A stretch of DNA of 32,000 nucleotides, from assembly GCA_964640155.1 (NCBI GenBank), contig CAZXEQ010000005.1, positions 1 through 32,000 of the forward strand, written 5' to 3'. Below the pieces are notes generated by a model, which worked only from the letters and a program-made list of their open reading frames with translations, did not search any database and was not told the DNA's origin. This DNA comes from an uncultured bacterium (lineage in GTDB: Bacteria; Auribacterota; JACPWU01). Below, piece after piece: positions 7,524 to 31,937 of this stretch. Each line of letters starts with the position of its first letter. Within the stretch, counting starts at the first letter, position 1. Made by a program: the position numbers and the translations under genes.

Positions 7524-9368
7524 ATGGACTTAACGCTTCTCTTTTTAATCACAGCATCACCGCTGATTGCATTTCTTGCAATCTCTGCTTTGCCCAAGCA
7601 ATTGAAAGGCTTAGCAAGCACTGTTTCCATTGTTGCCATTTTATCTTCCTTTTTTTCAACTCTTGGTATCTTTCTCAAACATCCTGAGATCACGCAAACT
7701 CCTTTAGAAATTCAATGGACTTGGCTGGTTTCACATCCCTTTAGTTTTAATGTGGGTTTTCTGATTGATCGCTTGAATGTTCTCATGCTTTTTATTGTGA
7801 CCTCGGTCAGTTTTTTCGTACAAGTTTTCTCAGTTAATTATATGGCCGAAGAAGGACGAGGAAAATCTCGTTATTTTTCATTTTTATCTCTTTTCTCTTT
7901 CGCCATGGTCAATTTGATTATTTCTAACAATCTTCTTCAAACTTTTATTTTTTGGGAATTGGTGGGACTCGCTTCTTATCTTTTAATTGGTTTCTGGTAT
8001 CAAAAACCTTCCGCAGTGGCAGCGTCTCGAAAAGCCTTTGTGGTGACTCGGTTGGGAGATTTAGGATTTTATTTAGCTGTGGGTCTTTTAGTGCTCCATG
8101 TAGGAAATCTTAATTTTTCATATTTGAATTCAGGGGTCGTTCAGCAAACCCTTTCTACCGGAATGATCACGCTCATCACCCTTTTGATCTTCGCAGGAGT
8201 GATGGGCAAAAGTGCCCAATTCCCTCTTCACATCTGGCTTCCAGATGCGATGGAAGGTCCAACTCCTGTGAGCGCACTTATTCACTCTGCAACCATGGTG
8301 GCCGCTGGTGTTTTCTTAACTGCAAGAAATTTTGCCTTATTCAGTGCTTCTCATACTTCCATGCTCTTTGTTCTTATTTTTGGAACCTTAACTGCTTTAA
8401 CAGGAGCCACTTTGGCTGTCATTCAAAATGACATTAAAAAGATTTTAGCTTACTCCACCATCAGCCAATTAGGTCTTATGATGATGGCCTTAGGCGCTGG
8501 TTCTTATGAAGGGGGTATTTTCCATCTCACAACACATGCCCTTTTCAAATCTCTCCTCTTTTTAACTGCAGGAAGCCTGATTCATCATTTTCATACCAAT
8601 GATATATGGGAAATGGCAAAAAAAGGTTCTCGCTCTCAAAAATTAAGTTTAACTGTTCTTTTGGTGGGCGGACTTTCTCTGGCAGGTATTTTCCCCTTCT
8701 CTGGATTCTGGAGTAAAGATTTGATTCTAGAAGCCCTAGAACATCAACCCATTTTTTATACTGCGGGTTTAATTGTCAGCTTTTTTACATCTTATTATGT
8801 TTTCAGATTATTGTTTATTCTCTATTTTAAATCTTCGGATGCTCATGACCATCCCCATCATCAACTCGGGATTTATACCTTCTGCAACAATTTCCCTTTG
8901 ATTACTTTAGCGATTGGATCCCTCATTGCTGGCTTTATGGGAACAGGCGTTTTCCATCATGTTCTTTTAAAATTTATTTCTCCTGAAGCCCATGGTGAGC
9001 TTTCCATGAAATTGATGCTCACAGGAACAGGCGTTGCTGCTGTTGGATTGATTCTTGCATTGTGGAATTATGTCAAGAAACCTGCTCAACCTGTTGCCAC
9101 TTCTACGGGAGTACGAAAGATTCTCGATAATAAGTATTATCTGGATGATCTTTTCGAAAAAGTTTTTGGGAAAATAATTTTAATGTTTTCAGGTTTTTTA
9201 AACTGGTTTGATAAAACAGTCATTAATGGTCAAATGGTAGACGGTTCCGGCAGAAATACATTTAGGCTGGGTGCCTTGCTCTCAAGACTACAATCGGGAG
9301 AGCTTCAAGACTATTTGATGATGCTTTTTGTGATTAGTTCGGCTGTGATTTATTTTTTACTTAAATAA
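7524..9368 (+). CDS. nuoL: NADH-quinone oxidoreductase subunit L (antiporter-like)
   Basis: 614 aa, with GKSAQFPLHIWLPDAMEGPTPVSALIHSATMV and a C-terminal lateral-helix region. Confidence 0.92.
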   Translation: MDLTLLFLITASPLIAFLAISALPKQLKGLASTVSIVAILSSFFSTLGIFLKHPEITQTPLEIQWTWLVSHPFSFNVGFLIDRLNVLMLFIVTSVSFFVQVFSVNYMAEEGRGKSRYFSFLSLFSFAMVNLIISNNLLQTFIFWELVGLASYLLIGFWYQKPSAVAASRKAFVVTRLGDLGFYLAVGLLVLHVGNLNFSYLNSGVVQQTLSTGMITLITLLIFAGVMGKSAQFPLHIWLPDAMEGPTPVSALIHSATMVAAGVFLTARNFALFSASHTSMLFVLIFGTLTALTGATLAVIQNDIKKILAYSTISQLGLMMMALGAGSYEGGIFHLTTHALFKSLLFLTAGSLIHHFHTNDIWEMAKKGSRSQKLSLTVLLVGGLSLAGIFPFSGFWSKDLILEALEHQPIFYTAGLIVSFFTSYYVFRLLFILYFKSSDAHDHPHHQLGIYTFCNNFPLITLAIGSLIAGFMGTGVFHHVLLKFISPEAHGELSMKLMLTGTGVAAVGLILALWNYVKKPAQPVATSTGVRKILDNKYYLDDLFEKVFGKIILMFSGFLNWFDKTVINGQMVDGSGRNTFRLGALLSRLQSGELQDYLMMLFVISSAVIYFLLK

Positions 9369-14581: not shown

Positions 14582-14640
14582 TTTAAAATTTCTCTATGTT
14601 TTATAATGATCATGTCATCAAAATCTACTTTTTCATAGAT

Positions 14641-14821
14641 GAGGGTGGCACAAATCCTGGGCCCCTTTCCCGCAAGGTCCTATGCGGACGAAGGCAAAGG
14701 ACTCCCGATTTTATACCCCTTTAAACCTTTTCTTACAAACACATCAGGAGAATGCTCAAGTCACGGGCGCTGGAACCGCAGGACCTGAGGACAAAGGGGT
14801 AAGATTTGTGACAGGACCCTC
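14641..14821. ncRNA. Candidate structured RNA A: 181-nt rod-like element
   Basis: About 34 Watson-Crick pairs join 14641-14687 to 14776-14821: 6 bp, 8 bp, 7 bp, 2 bp, then 11 bp (7+4 around a 2-nt bulge). A C/U-rich, poorly paired apical segment of about 56 nt lies at 14708-14763. GC is 53% by hand count. The strand is not resolvable because there are no G-U pairs. Confidence 0.45.
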
Positions 14822-14859
14822 TACTTTTGAATAAGAACACCCTTTGATCAATAGCATCC

Positions 14860-19691: not shown

Positions 19692-19844
19692 AAAACCTCT
19701 CAAAAAGGTGCCAAACATGTCCTTATAGTCCCCGTAAGGGGATGCAAGGCATCCACAAGCGACTGCGGAGGCGTACGTTTAATGGTACGCCGCACAAAGA
19801 AGCGCAGTGGGTAACGCAGCAGATGGACCTTTTTCAGAGGTTTT
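19692..19844 (+). ncRNA. Candidate structured RNA B: 153-nt multi-helix element 16 nt downstream of the preceding stop codon
   Basis: An 18-position closing stem (17 WC pairs) joins 19692-19709 to 19827-19844. It encloses a core that is 56% GC by hand count. Core hairpins: 19729-19742 (GUAA loop), 19740-19754, 19770-19791, and 19762-19767 paired with 19803-19808. UUUU follows the 3' arm. Strand is assigned from context only. Confidence 0.5.
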
Positions 19845-21597: not shown

Positions 21598-21786
21598 TTA
21601 AACCTTTTTCTCAGGGTTATCTTTTTTTATAAAAACGACATGCATGTAGTTAGCACAATGAGGACATTCAATAATAGAAGTTCTGCGAGTGATTTTTACT
21701 TGAGTTTGACAATGAGGACACTGCGCTTCAGAGTTTTCAGAAACAGGTATAGCAACATAGATCGTACTTTTTGATTTTGGATCCAT
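21598..21786 (-). CDS. Small zinc-ribbon protein
   Basis: 62 aa with two CPHC pairs (CPHCQTQ...CPHCANY). ATG start. Its stop lies 7 nt before the patatin start. Confidence 0.55.
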   Translation of the reverse strand: MDPKSKSTIYVAIPVSENSEAQCPHCQTQVKITRRTSIIECPHCANYMHVVFIKKDNPEKKV

Positions 21787-21848
21787 GTGTTTATTATACT
21801 CTTTTTTTAAAAAACTCCAGATAAGAATTTAATTTTAATCACGATAAC

Positions 21849-21987
21849 ATCGGTGAATAGAGCGTGAAGACCATTGGAGCTCGAGCGAGCATGGAACCCC
21901 GATAAATATCGGGGGAAGCGAGAGCTCCTTTGAGTTCGTTTACCTCGCCGGGGGAAACGAACGTGTCTGAATACTCTATTCACCGAT
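21849..21987 (-). ncRNA. Candidate structured RNA C: 139-nt three-way-junction element
   Basis: A perfect 14-bp closing stem joins 21849-21862 to 21974-21987, extended by AGAC/GUCU (21868-71 with 21965-68). Stem 21876-21882 pairs with 21922-21928 and is capped by the hairpin CCCCGAU-AAAU-AUCGGGG (21897-21914). A separate 8-bp hairpin spans 21934-21962. GC is 52% by hand count. Strand is assigned from flanking gene orientation only. Confidence 0.5.
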
Positions 21988-22005
21988 ATCTATGTAGAAA
22001 ATAGT

Positions 22006-22755: not shown

Positions 22756-24263
22756 GAAGACATTCCACAAAGAAGCTGAATTGCTCGATGAATTTGTGGG
22801 GTACGAAATCCGTAAGTTTGAATGCATGTCGTTGAGGAATTAACAAATTGAACATCATAGGGATTTCTTAAAAGAACTACTGCTAGATGAGAGAACTTTT
22901 GCTGAAGTTTCAGCAAAAGTTCTCTCTGAGAAGAAAGATGAACCGCATCGAAGCAAAACATCACTATGGGTGAATTTTTAGAAAGTTTCTCGAGTTTCTC
23001 AGAAAAATTATCTTTGATCAAATCAAACCTTATTTCTTCAACATCATACTTATAAGAATTAAAAGTTTTAGAAAAAAAAGAAGGATTTTCCAAAAGAGTG
23101 GCTTCAAAAAAATATTTGTTCTGTACAGAAGAAAAGTCTGGGATAAGAATTAAAAATTTTTGGTTAGTTGGATGAGAAAGAGGAAAAGAACCTTGATGAA
23201 CAAATTCGACAGATCTTTCAGAAATTTTTTTGGCTAGTTCAGAACCACTCTCTTTTCCAACACTTAAGGGATTCTTTCGTAAATCCTTTAAGACGGTCTT
23301 TAATCTTAAAACACTTTTCTCTAGATTTTCCCATTTAAGTCTCTTCTTTTCATAAGCTTCTTGAAGGGCATTATAACCCTTCTCAACCAAATCTTTCTGA
23401 TGACAGATTAAAACAAGATCATGTCCCACTTCAACTGCTCGGACCACCGCTTCTTCAAATGGGAAACGGCGAAGAATGGCTCCCATTTCTAAATCATCTG
23501 AGAAAATAATATTTTTAAAATTCAATTCTTCCCTTAAAAGTGTTGTCACAATTTTTTTTGAGAAAGTTGCTGGTAATTCTTTCTCAAAAGCGGAATAAAC
23601 CACATGACTGGTCATCACAAATGAAATACCCGAATGAATCGCTTTTTGAAAAGGTTGAAGATGAAGATTTTTCATCTCTTCAAACGAACAATTCACAAAG
23701 GGAAGATCTTCATGAGCATCTACTGTCGCTGCCCCTTTTCCAGGGAAATGCTTCGCCGTTGCCCCTACTCCTTGAGATTGCATTCCTGTCATCAAAGCAC
23801 AGCCCAACTGAGAAACTATTCTTGGATCTTGGCCAAAAGAACGAATTGTAATTCCTGGATTGAGGGTAGGAGTTAAAACATCTAAGACAGGGGCTAAGTT
23901 CACGTCAATCCCCAGCGAGCGAAGTTCATATCCCATGATACGCCCTTGTACTTGCGCCCAAACTTCGGATCCTGCTTTTCCTAAAGCCATATTTCCAGGG
24001 AAAGACGTAAAACCATCTTCAAGCCGCTGCACAAGACCACATTCATGATCAATGGTAAAAAAAACTTCTTCTCCTAAAAGAGTACGAATCTGCTGAATCA
24101 AATTTTTTAATTGAAGAGCAGAGTCAATATTTCTAGAAAAAAAGATAATTCCAGAAGGACGGATTTTTGAAAGAAAAAGTTTTAAATCCTCATTTAAAAC
24201 TTTCCCTTCAAAACCTATCACCAAATGGCACCCCACATGAAGAGAAGTCATCTTAAAATCCAA
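22752..24263 (-). CDS. nagZ: Beta-N-acetylhexosaminidase, glycoside hydrolase family 3, with an extra C-terminal domain
   Basis: 503 aa with KHFPGKG and SDDLEMGA motifs of the GH3 N-terminal domain. The ORF opens with TTG; the ATG at 24251 is an alternative start. Confidence 0.85.
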   Translation of the reverse strand: MDFKMTSLHVGCHLVIGFEGKVLNEDLKLFLSKIRPSGIIFFSRNIDSALQLKNLIQQIRTLLGEEVFFTIDHECGLVQRLEDGFTSFPGNMALGKAGSEVWAQVQGRIMGYELRSLGIDVNLAPVLDVLTPTLNPGITIRSFGQDPRIVSQLGCALMTGMQSQGVGATAKHFPGKGAATVDAHEDLPFVNCSFEEMKNLHLQPFQKAIHSGISFVMTSHVVYSAFEKELPATFSKKIVTTLLREELNFKNIIFSDDLEMGAILRRFPFEEAVVRAVEVGHDLVLICHQKDLVEKGYNALQEAYEKKRLKWENLEKSVLRLKTVLKDLRKNPLSVGKESGSELAKKISERSVEFVHQGSFPLSHPTNQKFLILIPDFSSVQNKYFFEATLLENPSFFSKTFNSYKYDVEEIRFDLIKDNFSEKLEKLSKNSPIVMFCFDAVHLSSQRELLLKLQQKFSHLAVVLLRNPYDVQFVNSSTTCIQTYGFRTPQIHRAIQLLCGMSS

Positions 24264-28491: not shown

Positions 28492-30699
28492 TTAACGATC
28501 TGAGACCGAACTCATTTTAAAAGATTTCCCATCACATTCTAAGACAAAAGAACACGCCCTTTCCCCTTCAAAAAGAGAGATTCTCCTTGCTTTAATTTCT
28601 TCACTCAAATACTTTTGAAAACCTTCTTTAAGAAAAACTGCTTTTATCTTTTGATGATCCATCCATTTTAAAAACGCTTCAACATCAACCTTATCTTCAA
28701 TAAAAACAACTCCTTCACCTTGCATCTTTTCCATTCTTAATTTTTCAAAAGTTCCCGCACGAAACCAAATCATCCATTGATCTTGATAATAAAGTTTTTC
28801 TAGCTCCCCTTCCGGAGAAATTTCAACTTTTATATTTTCCATCAAAGAAAGAGGTAAAGAATCTAAAGTTTGAGACTTTACGATCTGGAAAACACTGGTC
28901 TTTAAACTAGATTCTGTTTTAGGGATAAAAAGATGATTAATTTCTTTTACTTTTAATAAGAATAGAAGTTGATGAAGCCAAGGCTCTTCAATAGAAGTCG
29001 TATCAATACCGTTAAGCCAAAGAGAATATTTTTTATTCCATTCCATCATTTGTATATTTACTTGGCCTCGAGAAAAAGAAGAAAGCTTTAAAATATTTTC
29101 ATGACGAGCAGGAAATAGAAATACAACCAGGCTCAAAGCTATCAGCCAAAAATAAGATGTTTTGATTTTTTGAGTCCCTTTCCATAACCCTAAGAAAAGA
29201 ATGGCATAAAAAGAAATCATCCATAGCCAAGAAGGTCGATTAATAAAAAAATAAGCCCCTGGAAATTTTGAGAATAAATCCATGCTAGATACTAAAAAAC
29301 TCAAAAAAACCTCATTCATCATATTCAAAGGAACAGCAACAAAATCAGAAAAACCTAAAAGACCCACCACAAAACCTACATTCATGACAATGCCGACCAA
29401 AGGAACCGCTAATAAATTAGCTAAAATTGTTATAGGAGAAAAAACATGAAAGTGATAAGCGATCAAAGGGAAAACACCTATCCAAACGGCTAAAGAACTA
29501 CTAAGTGTCTTGATGATCCATTGCATCATTTTTTCAAAAAGACGCTCTCTTTTATCTAGAAGAGGGAAAAATCGTTGAGGTATTTTCTGAAGAAAAATCA
29601 AATCTTTTTCAAGAATGGGTGTTAGAAAAATTAACGCCAGCAGGCAAAGAAAAGACAATTGAAACCCAGGATCAAATAGACTTAAAGGATTATAAAGCAA
29701 CATTCCCAAAGCAGATCCTCCTAAAGCGTTGCTTAAATTACTTTTTCTTTTCAGAATTCGTCCGATGAGAAAAAATGTGGCCATAATCGCTGAGCGCAAA
29801 ATAGGAGGAGCCAAACCTGTCATAAAAGAATAAATCCAAATAGACAGAAGAGCCAAAATATAAACCCCTGTTTTAGGAAAAGAAAACAAACCTAGAACAA
29901 ATAAAATACACAGTAGTATCACTGTCAAATGAAGCCCTGAAATTGACAAAATATGAATGGTCCCGGTGTAGAGAAAAGAACTTTTTAGTTCAGGGCTAAC
30001 ATTTTCTCTGGACCCAACAATCATCGCTTGTAATAAAGGTAAAACCGTTGAATCCCTTGAAATTCCTTTCTCAAGATTATGATTTGTAAATTGCCTGAAT
30101 TGTTCAATCCTCTTTTCAAAAGAAATTTGATCACTCTGCAAGAGATGAATAGATTTAGCACTTGATACTTTTACTACTAAAACAACTCCCTGACTTTTCA
30201 GCCAAACAGGAAAACCTTCTTCATGACTGAAATTACTGAAAGGCCTTTGAAGAATCTTTCCTTCGAGTTCTATTTTGTCAAAGCGATTGAGTAAACAGTT
30301 CTCTCCCCCTTTCACAAGTACTTTCCCATTTGCAGAAAACCAGCGGTGATCTTCATGAGTAGAGTGAACATCTACGATGATTTGTTTAAGCCCAGAAATC
30401 TGAACAAAATCTACAATTTCTCCCTGAATTTGAATAAATGTTTTAGCTTTGGACAGTTGATCGATACGATCAGAGGAAGGAAAATAAATCTTAAAATCAT
30501 AAAGAAAAATTCCGACTAAAAAACATACACTTAAAAGACAAATATTTGAGATTTTCTGATTTTTTAAAAAAGGGAAAATAATTAAGAGCACAAAACCTAA
30601 AATCCATAGTCCAACGGTTAAACTAAAAGGAAGAAAAGAAGCTGTAAAAATTCCGACGGCAAGAGAAATAGAGAGAACAAGAAGAGGTTGTTTTGTCAT
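28492..30699 (-). CDS. comEC: DNA internalization competence protein ComEC/Rec2 family
   Basis: 735 aa with an N-terminal DUF4131/OB-like region and a polytopic competence domain (GTIHILSISGLHLT, FQLSFL). The C-terminal ~200 aa lack HxHxDH. Confidence 0.85.
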   Translation of the reverse strand: MTKQPLLVLSISLAVGIFTASFLPFSLTVGLWILGFVLLIIFPFLKNQKISNICLLSVCFLVGIFLYDFKIYFPSSDRIDQLSKAKTFIQIQGEIVDFVQISGLKQIIVDVHSTHEDHRWFSANGKVLVKGGENCLLNRFDKIELEGKILQRPFSNFSHEEGFPVWLKSQGVVLVVKVSSAKSIHLLQSDQISFEKRIEQFRQFTNHNLEKGISRDSTVLPLLQAMIVGSRENVSPELKSSFLYTGTIHILSISGLHLTVILLCILFVLGLFSFPKTGVYILALLSIWIYSFMTGLAPPILRSAIMATFFLIGRILKRKSNLSNALGGSALGMLLYNPLSLFDPGFQLSFLCLLALIFLTPILEKDLIFLQKIPQRFFPLLDKRERLFEKMMQWIIKTLSSSLAVWIGVFPLIAYHFHVFSPITILANLLAVPLVGIVMNVGFVVGLLGFSDFVAVPLNMMNEVFLSFLVSSMDLFSKFPGAYFFINRPSWLWMISFYAILFLGLWKGTQKIKTSYFWLIALSLVVFLFPARHENILKLSSFSRGQVNIQMMEWNKKYSLWLNGIDTTSIEEPWLHQLLFLLKVKEINHLFIPKTESSLKTSVFQIVKSQTLDSLPLSLMENIKVEISPEGELEKLYYQDQWMIWFRAGTFEKLRMEKMQGEGVVFIEDKVDVEAFLKWMDHQKIKAVFLKEGFQKYLSEEIKARRISLFEGERACSFVLECDGKSFKMSSVSDR

Positions 30700-30704
30700 A
30701 AATA

Positions 30705-30792
30705 CGGGTGACGCTCGACGGGGCGCCCTACCGAGCGCAACTTTTGCTGAGCACGGTGATGGTCCCGATGTGACATCGGGGGACCCGCCACC
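30705..30792 (-). ncRNA. Candidate structured RNA D: 88-nt GC-rich leader/intercistronic element abutting the comEC start codon
   Basis: 68% GC by hand count. Hairpin 30712-30717/30732-30737 carries a GGGCGCCC palindrome in its loop. Hairpin 30755-30792 contains CCCGAUG-UGA-CAUCGGG. An alternative closing pairing joins 30705-09 to 30783-87. The element ends 5 nt before the comEC ATG, which has no SD. Confidence 0.5.
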
Positions 30793-30819
30793 TTATCAGA
30801 AAATATACTTCTATGCATG

Positions 30820-31353
30820 TCAACCATCACCCCCATAATCCACAATTTCTACAGAAATGGCCTGCATAGAAATTTTAGCTAAATGAAGAATAGGAATAGA
30901 ATCTGACAACCAAACCTTCACAAGACGATCCTGATAAACACCTCTGTATCGTTGACATGGGAAAAACCCTTTTTCAACAGCAATAGACTCTTCGCCATCA
31001 AGCTTAAAATCAATTTGAAAAAAGTCATTCATTTCTGTTTTTTCAGGATAAATCTCTTTTACATTTCCTCCATCATAAATCCGAATCGAAATAACTTTTC
31101 CTTCATTCAAATCAATCAACTGCTCTGAGTCAGAAATTTGCTTATCTTTATTAAAACTTGTAATTTTAAGAGTGAGCTTTTCATCTCCTTTCGCAACAAC
31201 AGCCGTACGGGTCAATAATCCATCACTAGATTTCATCAAAATCCATTGTCCCACCTTAGTATTTTGATAAAAATCTGATATTTTTAAAGCTTGAGCTGAC
31301 CCCTGTACAAATAAACAACACAAAATTACCAATTGAATAAAAATCTTTTTCAT
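30820..31353 (-). CDS. Secreted protein of unknown function
   Basis: 177 aa from the ATG at 31353, which forms an ATGA overlap with the comEA stop. Signal peptide MKKIFIQLVILCCLFVQGSAQA. I recognise no family. Confidence 0.6.
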   Translation of the reverse strand: MKKIFIQLVILCCLFVQGSAQALKISDFYQNTKVGQWILMKSSDGLLTRTAVVAKGDEKLTLKITSFNKDKQISDSEQLIDLNEGKVISIRIYDGGNVKEIYPEKTEMNDFFQIDFKLDGEESIAVEKGFFPCQRYRGVYQDRLVKVWLSDSIPILHLAKISMQAISVEIVDYGGDG

Positions 31354-31937
31354 TTCACACAAACCTTATCCTTAAGATCATCAAATTTCTTTTGACCAAT
31401 GCCAGGAACCTTTAAAAGATCATCAACACAAGTGAAAACATGCTCTTTGCGATAGTCCATAATTCGTGTTGCTAAACCCGGCCCAATACCTGGAAGGCCA
31501 TCCAATTCAATAACACTTGCAGCATTGATATTAATTTTTCCTGGCTCTTTTGAAGGAGGGGTTTCAGCAGAAACATTCACAGGGGTCTCTTGTATAACAG
31601 GCATCCCAGGAACAACAATCGTTTGTCCGTCCTTAACAAATTCCGCCAAGGGAAGACCTAACAAATCTGCTTGAGGTAAAGGTGTAGCTTTTTGAATCGC
31701 TTCTATCAAACGTGTCCCTAGCACTACGCGATAAACACCAGGGTCCTGTACAGCACCTTTTACAAGAACAAGAAGATCTTCTCTAGAGCTCTCAAGCTCT
31801 ATCGCCTGATGACGAGAACCTCTTTGAAAAACATCTATGCCTGCAAACCTTTTAACTGCAAACAAAGACAAACCTAAAATAAAAAGAAGAATAAGAGAAA
31901 AAAGAAGAATCCGTTCTTGGCGAGTTAAACTGAACAT
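31350..31937 (-). CDS. comEA: ComEA-family DNA-binding competence protein (SLBB plus helix-hairpin-helix)
   Basis: 195 aa with an N-terminal TM anchor, an SLBB-like VKGAVQDPGVYRV segment, and C-terminal INAASVIELDGLPGIGPGLATRI...VPGIGQKKF HhH motifs. Confidence 0.85.
   Translation of the reverse strand: MFSLTRQERILLFSLILLFILGLSLFAVKRFAGIDVFQRGSRHQAIELESSREDLLVLVKGAVQDPGVYRVVLGTRLIEAIQKATPLPQADLLGLPLAEFVKDGQTIVVPGMPVIQETPVNVSAETPPSKEPGKININAASVIELDGLPGIGPGLATRIMDYRKEHVFTCVDDLLKVPGIGQKKFDDLKDKVCVK

Follow-up and report, generated by a model that had tools for sequence, protein, structure and literature searches.

A stretch of 32,000 nt from an uncultured bacterium of the Auribacterota (GTDB lineage JACPWU01; assembly GCA_964640155.1, contig CAZXEQ010000005.1, positions 1 to 32,000; hereafter the window) carries on its minus strand the competence genes comEA and comEC, a clade-specific gene between them and, directly upstream of comEC, a GC-rich structured element that we designate element D. 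comEA (31350–31937) encodes a protein of 195 amino acids (aa) with the Pfam domains HHH_3, HHH, and SLBB, and when the junction was read its TGA stop overlapped the ATG of the next gene as ATGA. This next gene, hyp (30820–31353), encodes a secreted-looking protein of 177 aa from its ATG, with a signal-like segment at its N-terminus and a conserved VDYG motif in its C-terminal part. No match to it was found in Pfam or NCBIfam, and its homologues among 5.8 billion proteins formed 17 clusters, all within this clade. It was placed between comEA and comEC in every clade member examined (L002, L003, L006–L009, and L093–L096). comEC (28492–30699) encodes 735 aa with the Pfam domains Competence and DUF4131, and has an ATG start and a weak Shine–Dalgarno (SD) sequence. 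The start called in an earlier, first-pass annotation was upheld, as the N-terminus aligned with those of orthologues, supporting the ATG at 30699, and no in-frame start codon was present upstream of it. The synteny leuS–comEA–hyp–comEC was kept in relatives, with rsbU-like and STAS genes lying opposite. The nearest ComEC and hyp proteins came from metagenome-assembled genomes (MAGs) that carry the label Chlamydiae or Candidatus Auribacterota and fall within the Planctomycetes–Verrucomicrobia–Chlamydiae (PVC) group. One of them, the MAG Candidatus Auribacterota bacterium SZ_szas25bin.51 (contig JAYRIK010000092.1; L008), was found via a ComEC-alignment scan of species-representative genomes and served as the close relative for comparison.

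The gap between the hyp stop codon (30822–30820) and the comEC ATG is 120 nt long (30700–30819). The core of D (30705–30792) has a G + C content of 68.2%, the highest of any 88-mer in the window and about 5 standard deviations above the mean (mean 0.375, standard deviation 0.06). Hairpin 1 (30755–30792, minus strand) has the form GGUG..GGGUCC-CCCGAUG-UCA-CAUCGGG-ACC..CACC. Hairpin 2 (30712–30737, minus strand), CGCUCG-GUAGGGCGCCCCGU-CGAGCG, is a 26-nt near-palindrome with a 14-nt middle, and its two G.U pairs are functional on the sense strand only. The palindrome GGGCGCCC and the CGGGU/ACCCG pair are also found in the gap, so that the gap, the 68% GC element, both hairpins, the palindrome, and the pair reported in the first-pass annotation were all present on reading the sequence. 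An alternative hairpin b (30730–30757, minus strand; ACCGUGCUCAGC-AAAA-GUUGCGCUCGGU) excludes hairpin 2, and because the two compete, the fold of D is ambiguous. A possible closing helix, P1, would join GUGAUGGUUGAC (30819–30830, minus strand), which includes the hyp stop codon, to GUCGAGCGUCAC (30708–30719, minus strand), which ends 8 nt before the comEC AUG. The RNAalifold consensus of two sequences, those of the window and L008, consisted of P1, of P2 formed by GGGUCCC and GGGCGCCC, and of P3, which is hairpin b; the variable apex of hairpin 1 was placed in a peripheral arm. P1 differed between the two genomes by three one-sided substitutions with pairing kept, and its pairing probability was approximately 1.0 in the window. 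In a longer context the consensus was not reproduced by L008, and a single shared secondary structure is not claimed for D.

Folding of the sense strand over 136 nt gave −47.1 kcal/mol (z = −2.69; two of 200 shuffles were equally good), and the 88-nt core alone gave −39.2 kcal/mol (z = −2.40), compared with a z of approximately −1.0 for the antisense strand. D thus folds beyond chance on the sense strand, yet modestly and not strikingly. The end of hairpin 2 lies 12 nt upstream of the comEC AUG, and the sequence that follows it is UCACCCGUAUUU, not a U-tract. No terminator-like site and no promoter consensus were found in the gap, and a tRNA/tmRNA search gave none. Sigma-54 and leaderless arrangements were rejected on reading the gap sequence. 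A DNA-operator role for the 26-bp palindrome was also considered weak, since its G.T positions pair as RNA only and no promoter was present.

D was located at the same site in L008, with conserved flanks. The ComEC of L008 is 87% identical to that of the window, and searches with ComEC and the hyp protein gave no relative other than L008 between 67% and 100% identity. The coding regions of the two genomes were 84–87% identical, with 25–34% divergence at third codon positions. The 3′ half of D (30700–30758, minus strand) was identical at 58 of 59 nt, a level equalled by just 0.12% of coding 59-nt windows. Set against the third-position divergence, this identity indicates that the 3′ half of D is under purifying selection at the nucleotide level. 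The 5′ 39 nt of D were identical at 36 positions. Hairpin 1 (30792–30755) retained 21 identical nt among the 32 aligned, with a 6-nt indel and an apex of different sequence. At the one position of the 3′ half that differs (30729, A>G), the L008 base brings hairpin 2 as well as hairpin b closer to a perfect hairpin, and hairpin b is lengthened there to CCCCACCG/CGGUGGGG; hairpin 2 is otherwise identical. A 1-nt indel between the genomes shifts the last hyp codons, and the nucleotides of the SD region described below are conserved regardless. From this pattern, the selected part of D appears to be its 3′ half together with its 5′ edge, and not the conspicuous hairpin 1.

The gap also contains an open reading frame (ORF) that was overlooked in the first-pass annotation. 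This mini-ORF (30696–30818, minus strand) has 40 codons, with the translation MHRSIFSDKVAGPPMSHRDHHRAQQKLRSVGRPVERHPYL followed by a stop. Its ATG at 30818 sits 1 nt past the hyp stop, and its UGA (30698–30696) overlaps the comEC AUG as AUGA. An SD-like sequence, GGGGGUGAU (30826–30834, minus strand), lies 7 nt before the mini-ORF ATG, inside the last hyp codons. None of the other starts, among 28 examined in the window, had an anti-SD duplex as strong as the one formed by this sequence (−15.8 kcal/mol), and GGGGGUGAU ranked second among the anti-SD sites within 64 kb on both strands. The duplex of the comEC start with the 16S tail reached only −4.0 kcal/mol. This weakness is in line with the earlier statement that no purine-rich SD precedes comEC; the accompanying one, that SDs are clear for other genes, is half true, as approximately half of the other starts were also weak. 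Two features of coupled gene pairs are found here: an NTGA stop/start overlap, present at the mini-ORF/comEC junction in both the window and L008, and strong upstream signals (−15.8 kcal/mol with 7-nt spacing) combined with a weak downstream ribosome-binding site (RBS; −4.0 kcal/mol).

The mini-ORF is intact in L008, where it has 38 codons, and its stop overlaps the comEC start in both genomes. The hyp stop and the ATG of the mini-ORF are separated by 1 nt in the window, compared with 8 nt in L008. The sole indel within the frame is 6 nt long and in frame. Among four isolated substitutions, three fall at third positions and are synonymous (TTT>TTC, CCC>CCT, and GTA>GTG), and one is nonsynonymous (GCG>TCG). 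With ATGA between comEA and hyp, UGAcAUG after hyp, and AUGA at comEC, the operon can be read as successive coupled frames: comEA–ATGA–hyp–UGAcAUG–mini-ORF–AUGA–comEC.

When the mini-ORF peptide was searched with phmmer against 1.84 billion representative proteins, a single match was obtained (P0138; E value, 5.3e-4; 66–70% identity). P0138 is an annotated 34-aa ORF (MTFEKVAGPAARQPHRAQQKLRSMGRPAEHHPHQ) on an NCBI contig of 620,977 nt, and in the alignment it stops where the mini-ORF does. Its middle segment has the version found in L008 (GPAARQPHRAQQ). Because L008 and P0138 share this version, the perfect hairpin 1 of the window is probably a derived state, and a recent one, specific to its lineage. 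Among the hyp and ComEC clusters found, there was none whose longest contig measures 620,977 nt, and P0138 may therefore not adjoin comEC. A scan of viral sequences for the P0138 locus was negative. The related ORF raises the question of whether D encodes a genuine small protein of the competence operon, a basic peptide of 38–40 aa rich in His, Arg, and Pro that is itself the object of selection. The conservation of the frame in L008, with isolated changes that are mostly synonymous, its strong SD and ATG, and the common end point of P0138 are all compatible with this. Against it, the codon adaptation of the frame lies far outside that of native genes, its G + C content is 56–68% in a genome of 37.5%, and 5–7 residues were replaced outright between two close species. 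The peptide had no match in Pfam or NCBIfam, and the gene caller applied to the Logan contig L001, which also carries D, passed over it. The frozen synonymous sites in the 3′ half likewise point to a constraint on the nucleotides and not on the peptide. We consider a selected peptide quite unlikely.

The orthologous hyp–comEC junctions provide an indication of the state before D. D was found in the window, L001, and L008 only, and eight relatives at a greater distance do not have it at this junction; alignment of comEC upstream regions, proposed in the first-pass annotation, thus demonstrated conservation over a short distance but not a long one, with no covariation to be drawn from two near-identical copies. 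The spacers of distant relatives range from −1 to 145 nt and are of unrelated sequence, compared with 120 nt in the window and 121 nt in L008, where they consist of D. In L009 the spacer is −1 nt (TAATG), and the comEC SD, GGAGGA, which occurs at the place equivalent to that of GGGGGUGAU in the window, is formed by the DYGG codons of hyp. The spacer is 2 nt in L003, 11 nt in L096, 46 nt in L006, 71 nt in L007, 87 nt in L093, 103 nt in L094, and 145 nt in L002; the P0003 contig has a spacer of 49 nt by gene-call coordinates only. comEC of L006 and L007 has its own GAGG SD and a TTG start. The overlapping or adjacent stop and start codons of L009 and L003 suggest that the ancestral hyp–comEC junction was likely translationally coupled.

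The longer spacers were also compared with D individually. No homology of D to the spacers of L002, L006, or L007 was detected by alignment. The L002 spacer has an open +1 frame with an ATG that ends in ATGA at comEC. The spacers of L093 (z = −4.1) and L002 (z = −2.2) are structured, and those of L094, L006, and L007 are not. In L093, whose hyp protein is the next closest (67% identity), the 87-nt spacer (797–883) is one long imperfect hairpin (z = −4.1 sense, −2.8 antisense) that ends approximately 7 nt before the comEC AUG. Its arms carry GCUCG/CGAGC words resembling those of hairpin 2 of D, but a likeness of its 3′ arm (CGAGCG..ATTT.ATG) to D was not significant by covariance model (CM; 7.9 bits; E value, 0.48). 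In L094 (3523–3640), pairing is possible between UUCUAUGAAGC, which comprises the AUG and initial codons of comEC, and GCUUCGUAGAA, located 5′-terminally in the 103-nt AT-rich spacer. This pairing would be a long-range helix sequestering the start; the overall fold was no better than shuffles (z = −0.8).

Our favored reading, to which we give a probability of approximately 40%, is that D is a lineage-specific GC-rich insert that split an ancestrally overlapping, coupled hyp–comEC junction and is now a selected cis-acting part of the comEA–hyp–comEC mRNA that keeps the SD-poor comEC coupled. In this relay, ribosomes would load at the strong SD GGGGGUGAU in the last hyp codons, or start again 1 nt past the hyp stop, and would translate the 40-codon mini-ORF through the hairpins, unwinding them. 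They would terminate at the UGA overlapping the comEC AUG and reinitiate on comEC, which is itself without a good SD. The stable hairpins would limit independent initiation, and comEC output would follow translation of comEA and hyp at a reduced ratio. The insert, its pattern of conservation, the conserved open frame, the SD, the AUGA overlap, and the close junctions of relatives are observed, whereas translation of the mini-ORF and its driving of initiation at comEC are inferred.

Several observations weigh against this relay. The codon adaptation of the mini-ORF is 0.40, lower than that of all 890 40-codon windows of real genes, and the gap, being GC-rich, has all three frames open by chance. 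The AUGA overlap is automatic, because the second codon of comEC starts with A in all relatives. In the 3′ half of D, a change is seen at just one of 20 third positions, which indicates a nucleotide-level constraint beyond coding that the relay alone leaves unexplained. The conservation statistics of the frame rest on two DNA copies with 84–87% identity and are weak, with a combined chance probability of roughly 0.01–0.05, estimated post hoc. Among the relatives, the spacer hairpin of L093 has no bridging ORF, and L006 and L007 rely on their own GAGG SDs. The predicted folds of the window and L008 disagree once more context is included, as P1 is gone from the minimum free energy structure of L008 with longer flanking context. 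Finally, P0138 may lie away from hyp and comEC, which would favor a free-standing small gene or a mobile element.

Some of these observations are accommodated if D acts through RNA structure only, as an intercistronic stem-loop block comparable to REP or ERIC elements once transcribed, with the open frame being incidental. Such a block could shield the comEA–hyp mRNA from 3′ exonucleases or serve as a processing or pause site, and would lower comEC relative to comEA and hyp. It would be in keeping with GC-rich hairpins within an AT-rich operon, with the folding preference of the sense strand, and with the structured spacers of L093 and L002 at the same junction, as well as with the over-conserved synonymous sites and the codon usage unlike that of real genes. 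However, no U-tract or terminator signature accompanies the hairpins, hairpin 1 is not conserved even in L008, and the folding z-scores are modest. A purely structural role also leaves unexplained the strong SD and ATG at the 5′ edge, the in-frame indel, and the synonymous bias of the substitutions. We regard it as unlikely, although less so than the other alternatives to the relay.

The first-pass annotation had proposed that D masks the comEC start and acts as a switch on comEC translation, of a riboswitch-like, thermometer-like, or protein-operated type. The energy required to open positions −15 to +12 around the comEC AUG was 8.5 kcal/mol, in the middle of the range of 27 starts in the window (2.8–13.8 kcal/mol), and the AUG bases were largely unpaired in the ensemble (unpaired probabilities, 0.41–0.97); the start is thus not unusually masked. 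No hit at the gathering score was obtained when the whole window was scanned with Rfam, no hit with an E value of 5 or less fell in the gap, and a permissive scan of the gap up to an E value of 10 returned only noise (E values above 3). A switch would fit the conserved 3′ core beside a variable peripheral hairpin, the mutually exclusive pairings of hairpin 2 with hairpin b and P1, and the position of D directly upstream of an SD-poor start. On the other hand, D matches no Rfam family, occurs at one locus in one genus-level lineage, and offers no covariation from its two copies. Pairing of the start codon and of the 27 nt around it is not unusual, and no SD is present to be sequestered. The SD or AUG held in a meltable hairpin, which marks RNA thermometers of the ROSE or fourU type, was not seen, nor was the GC hairpin followed by a U-tract of an intrinsic terminator or attenuator, nor an aptamer recurring across taxa or loci with covariation, as D is limited to the window, L001, and L008. 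A gate of this kind is highly improbable in our estimation. What can be retained of the earlier proposal is that D is non-random on the sense strand and that a cis role in comEC translation is plausible. The open frame with its SD, ending in AUGA, points to translational coupling rather than to the sensing of a ligand or temperature.

D is one of four GC-rich self-closing islands in the 32 kb of the window, all of which lie between co-directional genes. Island A (14634–14824; approximately 190 nt) is located between uvrC and a DUF255/thioredoxin-like gene and has a long closing stem, GAGGGU..CACAAAUC / GAUUUGUG..ACCCUC; its overall shape recalls 6S RNA. No Rfam match was found for it in a targeted scan up to an E value of 10, and no homologue in the collected loci. 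Island B (19698–19840, plus strand) lies between a 1006-aa spermidine-synthase/TPR gene and an M48 peptidase gene. It is approximately 80% identical over about 100 nt (BLAST E value, 2e-13) to positions 8630–8765 (minus strand) of L003, in the leuS–comEA gap of GCA_016178055.1. This match has the opposite orientation and lies at a site that is not orthologous; the ComEC of that genome shares only 40% identity. Inverted repeats (AAAAAGG/CCUUUUU) close each of the two copies, which have a GGCGUAC-loop-GUACGCC hairpin in common, and folding is strong on both strands (z of −4 to −7). A targeted Rfam scan gave no match, and a CM found no more copies in approximately 0.4 Mb. Island B could be a mobile structured element, a member of a bidirectional terminator family, or an unknown small RNA. 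Island C (21850–21995) has a perfect 14-bp terminal inverted repeat (ATCGGTGAATAGAG / CTCTATTCACCGAT) around two GC-rich hairpins, with folding z-scores of −6.4 (minus strand) and −7.1 (plus strand), and had no homologue in the collected loci. Its CCCCGAU-loop-AUCGGGG hairpin resembles hairpin 1 of D. Kinship of D with islands A–C was rejected, as only a 9-nt hairpin word was common with island C, at chance level, and no alignment was obtained with the island B family.

Further copies of D were sought in the window, in 1.3 Mb of collected loci, and in plasmid, phage, viral, genome, and metagenome collections, with the source genome represented by the window. No second copy was present in the 32-kb window or in L001–L005, nor in the 1.3 Mb of loci by BLAST and tblastn, and the CM built from the two D copies gave no further match. 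BLAST of D against the plasmid and phage collections also gave none. The exact pattern of hairpin 1 was absent from the genome and metagenome contig collections, and that of the D linker from viral contigs. The exact pattern of the hairpin 2 core gave five matches, all in unrelated contigs of 60–72% GC. In the sequences searched, D thus matched no generic dispersed repeat of the kind considered in the first-pass annotation.

These searches bear on the possibility that D is a selfish remnant, a GC-rich palindromic element like the other islands or a miniature inverted-repeat transposable element, tolerated by the host without function. D carries a 12-nt imperfect terminal inverted repeat (GTGATGGTTGAC / GTCGAGCGTCAC), which corresponds to P1, and its presence is lineage-specific. 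The clustering of four islands in 32 kb, the displaced homologue of island B in a distant genome, and the possibly different context of P0138 could be understood in the same manner. No flanking direct repeat or target-site duplication was seen around D on reading the sequence, however, and no second copy was found in the window or in the loci and collections searched. The element also occupies the same site between conserved flanks in both species, and its identity at 58 of 59 nt against a neutral-like divergence of 25–34% argues against neutrality. A remnant without host function is accordingly rather improbable. A more far-reaching proposal is that D and islands A–C belong to an undescribed class of mobile GC-rich self-closing structured insertions in Auribacterota or the PVC group. 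Members would move between loci, as island B evidently did, and D would be a domesticated copy. It would now serve as a new kind of regulatory module, made up of a structured RNA and a mini-ORF of rare codons, and production of the DNA-uptake channel would depend through it on a signal, for example a ligand, a protein, or charged-tRNA supply. We regard this as very unlikely.

Two other features of the window were recorded. An unlisted small ORF of approximately 62 aa (about 21600–21787, minus strand), just downstream of island C, has two CxxC pairs (CPHC...CPHC) of a zinc-ribbon-like type and is preceded by a TATAAT-like box. An AT-rich near-perfect 58-nt palindrome (24160–24218) lies between a GH3 gene and a 179-aa ORF. 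Its match to ‘mir-1502’ was spurious on both strands (E values, 0.025 and 0.12), and it is probably a terminator-like or intercistronic hairpin.

If the coupling relay at D is real, it would be a natural example of an operon that repaired its coupling after a foreign structured insert split overlapping genes, and the finding in Bacillus subtilis that ComEC is set by upstream coupling would extend to a PVC phylum without cultivated members. It would also serve as a warning that short translated frames may be concealed in GC-rich ‘structured gaps’ of AT-rich genomes. The wider pattern may outweigh D itself, as four GC-rich closed structures occur in 32 kb and one of them is conserved elsewhere in a distant genome.

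D can be compared with several known systems. The c-di-GMP-I riboswitch is located upstream of tfoX-like genes in Vibrio. D is likewise a structured RNA upstream of a competence gene, but it has no CM match, no wide distribution, and no expression platform based on an SD or terminator. REP/BIME, ERIC, Correia, and Rickettsia palindromic elements are transcribed intergenic repeats that are defined by many dispersed copies per genome. D resembles them in its length class (90–150 nt), closing terminal inverted repeats, location between co-transcribed genes, non-host composition, and lineage specificity. Unlike these elements, it has no dispersed copies in the data searched, is fixed at one orthologous site, and is apparently under purifying selection. 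For the iraD leader ORF, translation of a short upstream ORF is described as required for the downstream gene (PMC5574718). D also has a short upstream ORF, whose translation would be required for comEC in the proposed relay; it differs in that no regulator site, such as CsrA GGA motifs, was identified in it and in that it is internal to an operon rather than a 5′ leader.

NTGA overlaps and the unfolding of RNA by upstream ribosomes are standard models of coupling, with rpmI–rplT and MS2 coat–lysis as examples (PMC12548453). Consistent with these models, the mini-ORF UGA overlaps the comEC AUG and a stable structure lies just upstream of the comEC start, but the coupling ORF is short, poorly adapted, and contained in an insert, and the comEC start is not strongly sequestered. 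In the comE operon of B. subtilis, comEC was shown experimentally to be coupled to translation of the upstream comEB and has a suboptimal RBS, and the role proposed for this coupling is to fix the stoichiometry irrespective of transcription (De Santis, Hahn & Dubnau, bioRxiv 10.1101/2020.12.30.424838). The window has the same order of comEA, a middle ORF, and comEC with a weak RBS, and hyp occupies the position that comEB holds in Bacillus; coupling is deduced here from sequence. The two operons differ in that the middle gene of the window encodes an unrelated secreted-looking protein, that a 120-nt GC-rich structured insert with a mini-ORF precedes comEC, and that the host is an uncultivated PVC bacterium. 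Overall, D works most like a coupled-ORF junction and lacks the features of Rfam riboswitches, thermometers, and intrinsic terminators that were tested; we regard it as a translational-coupling or structured intercistronic element.

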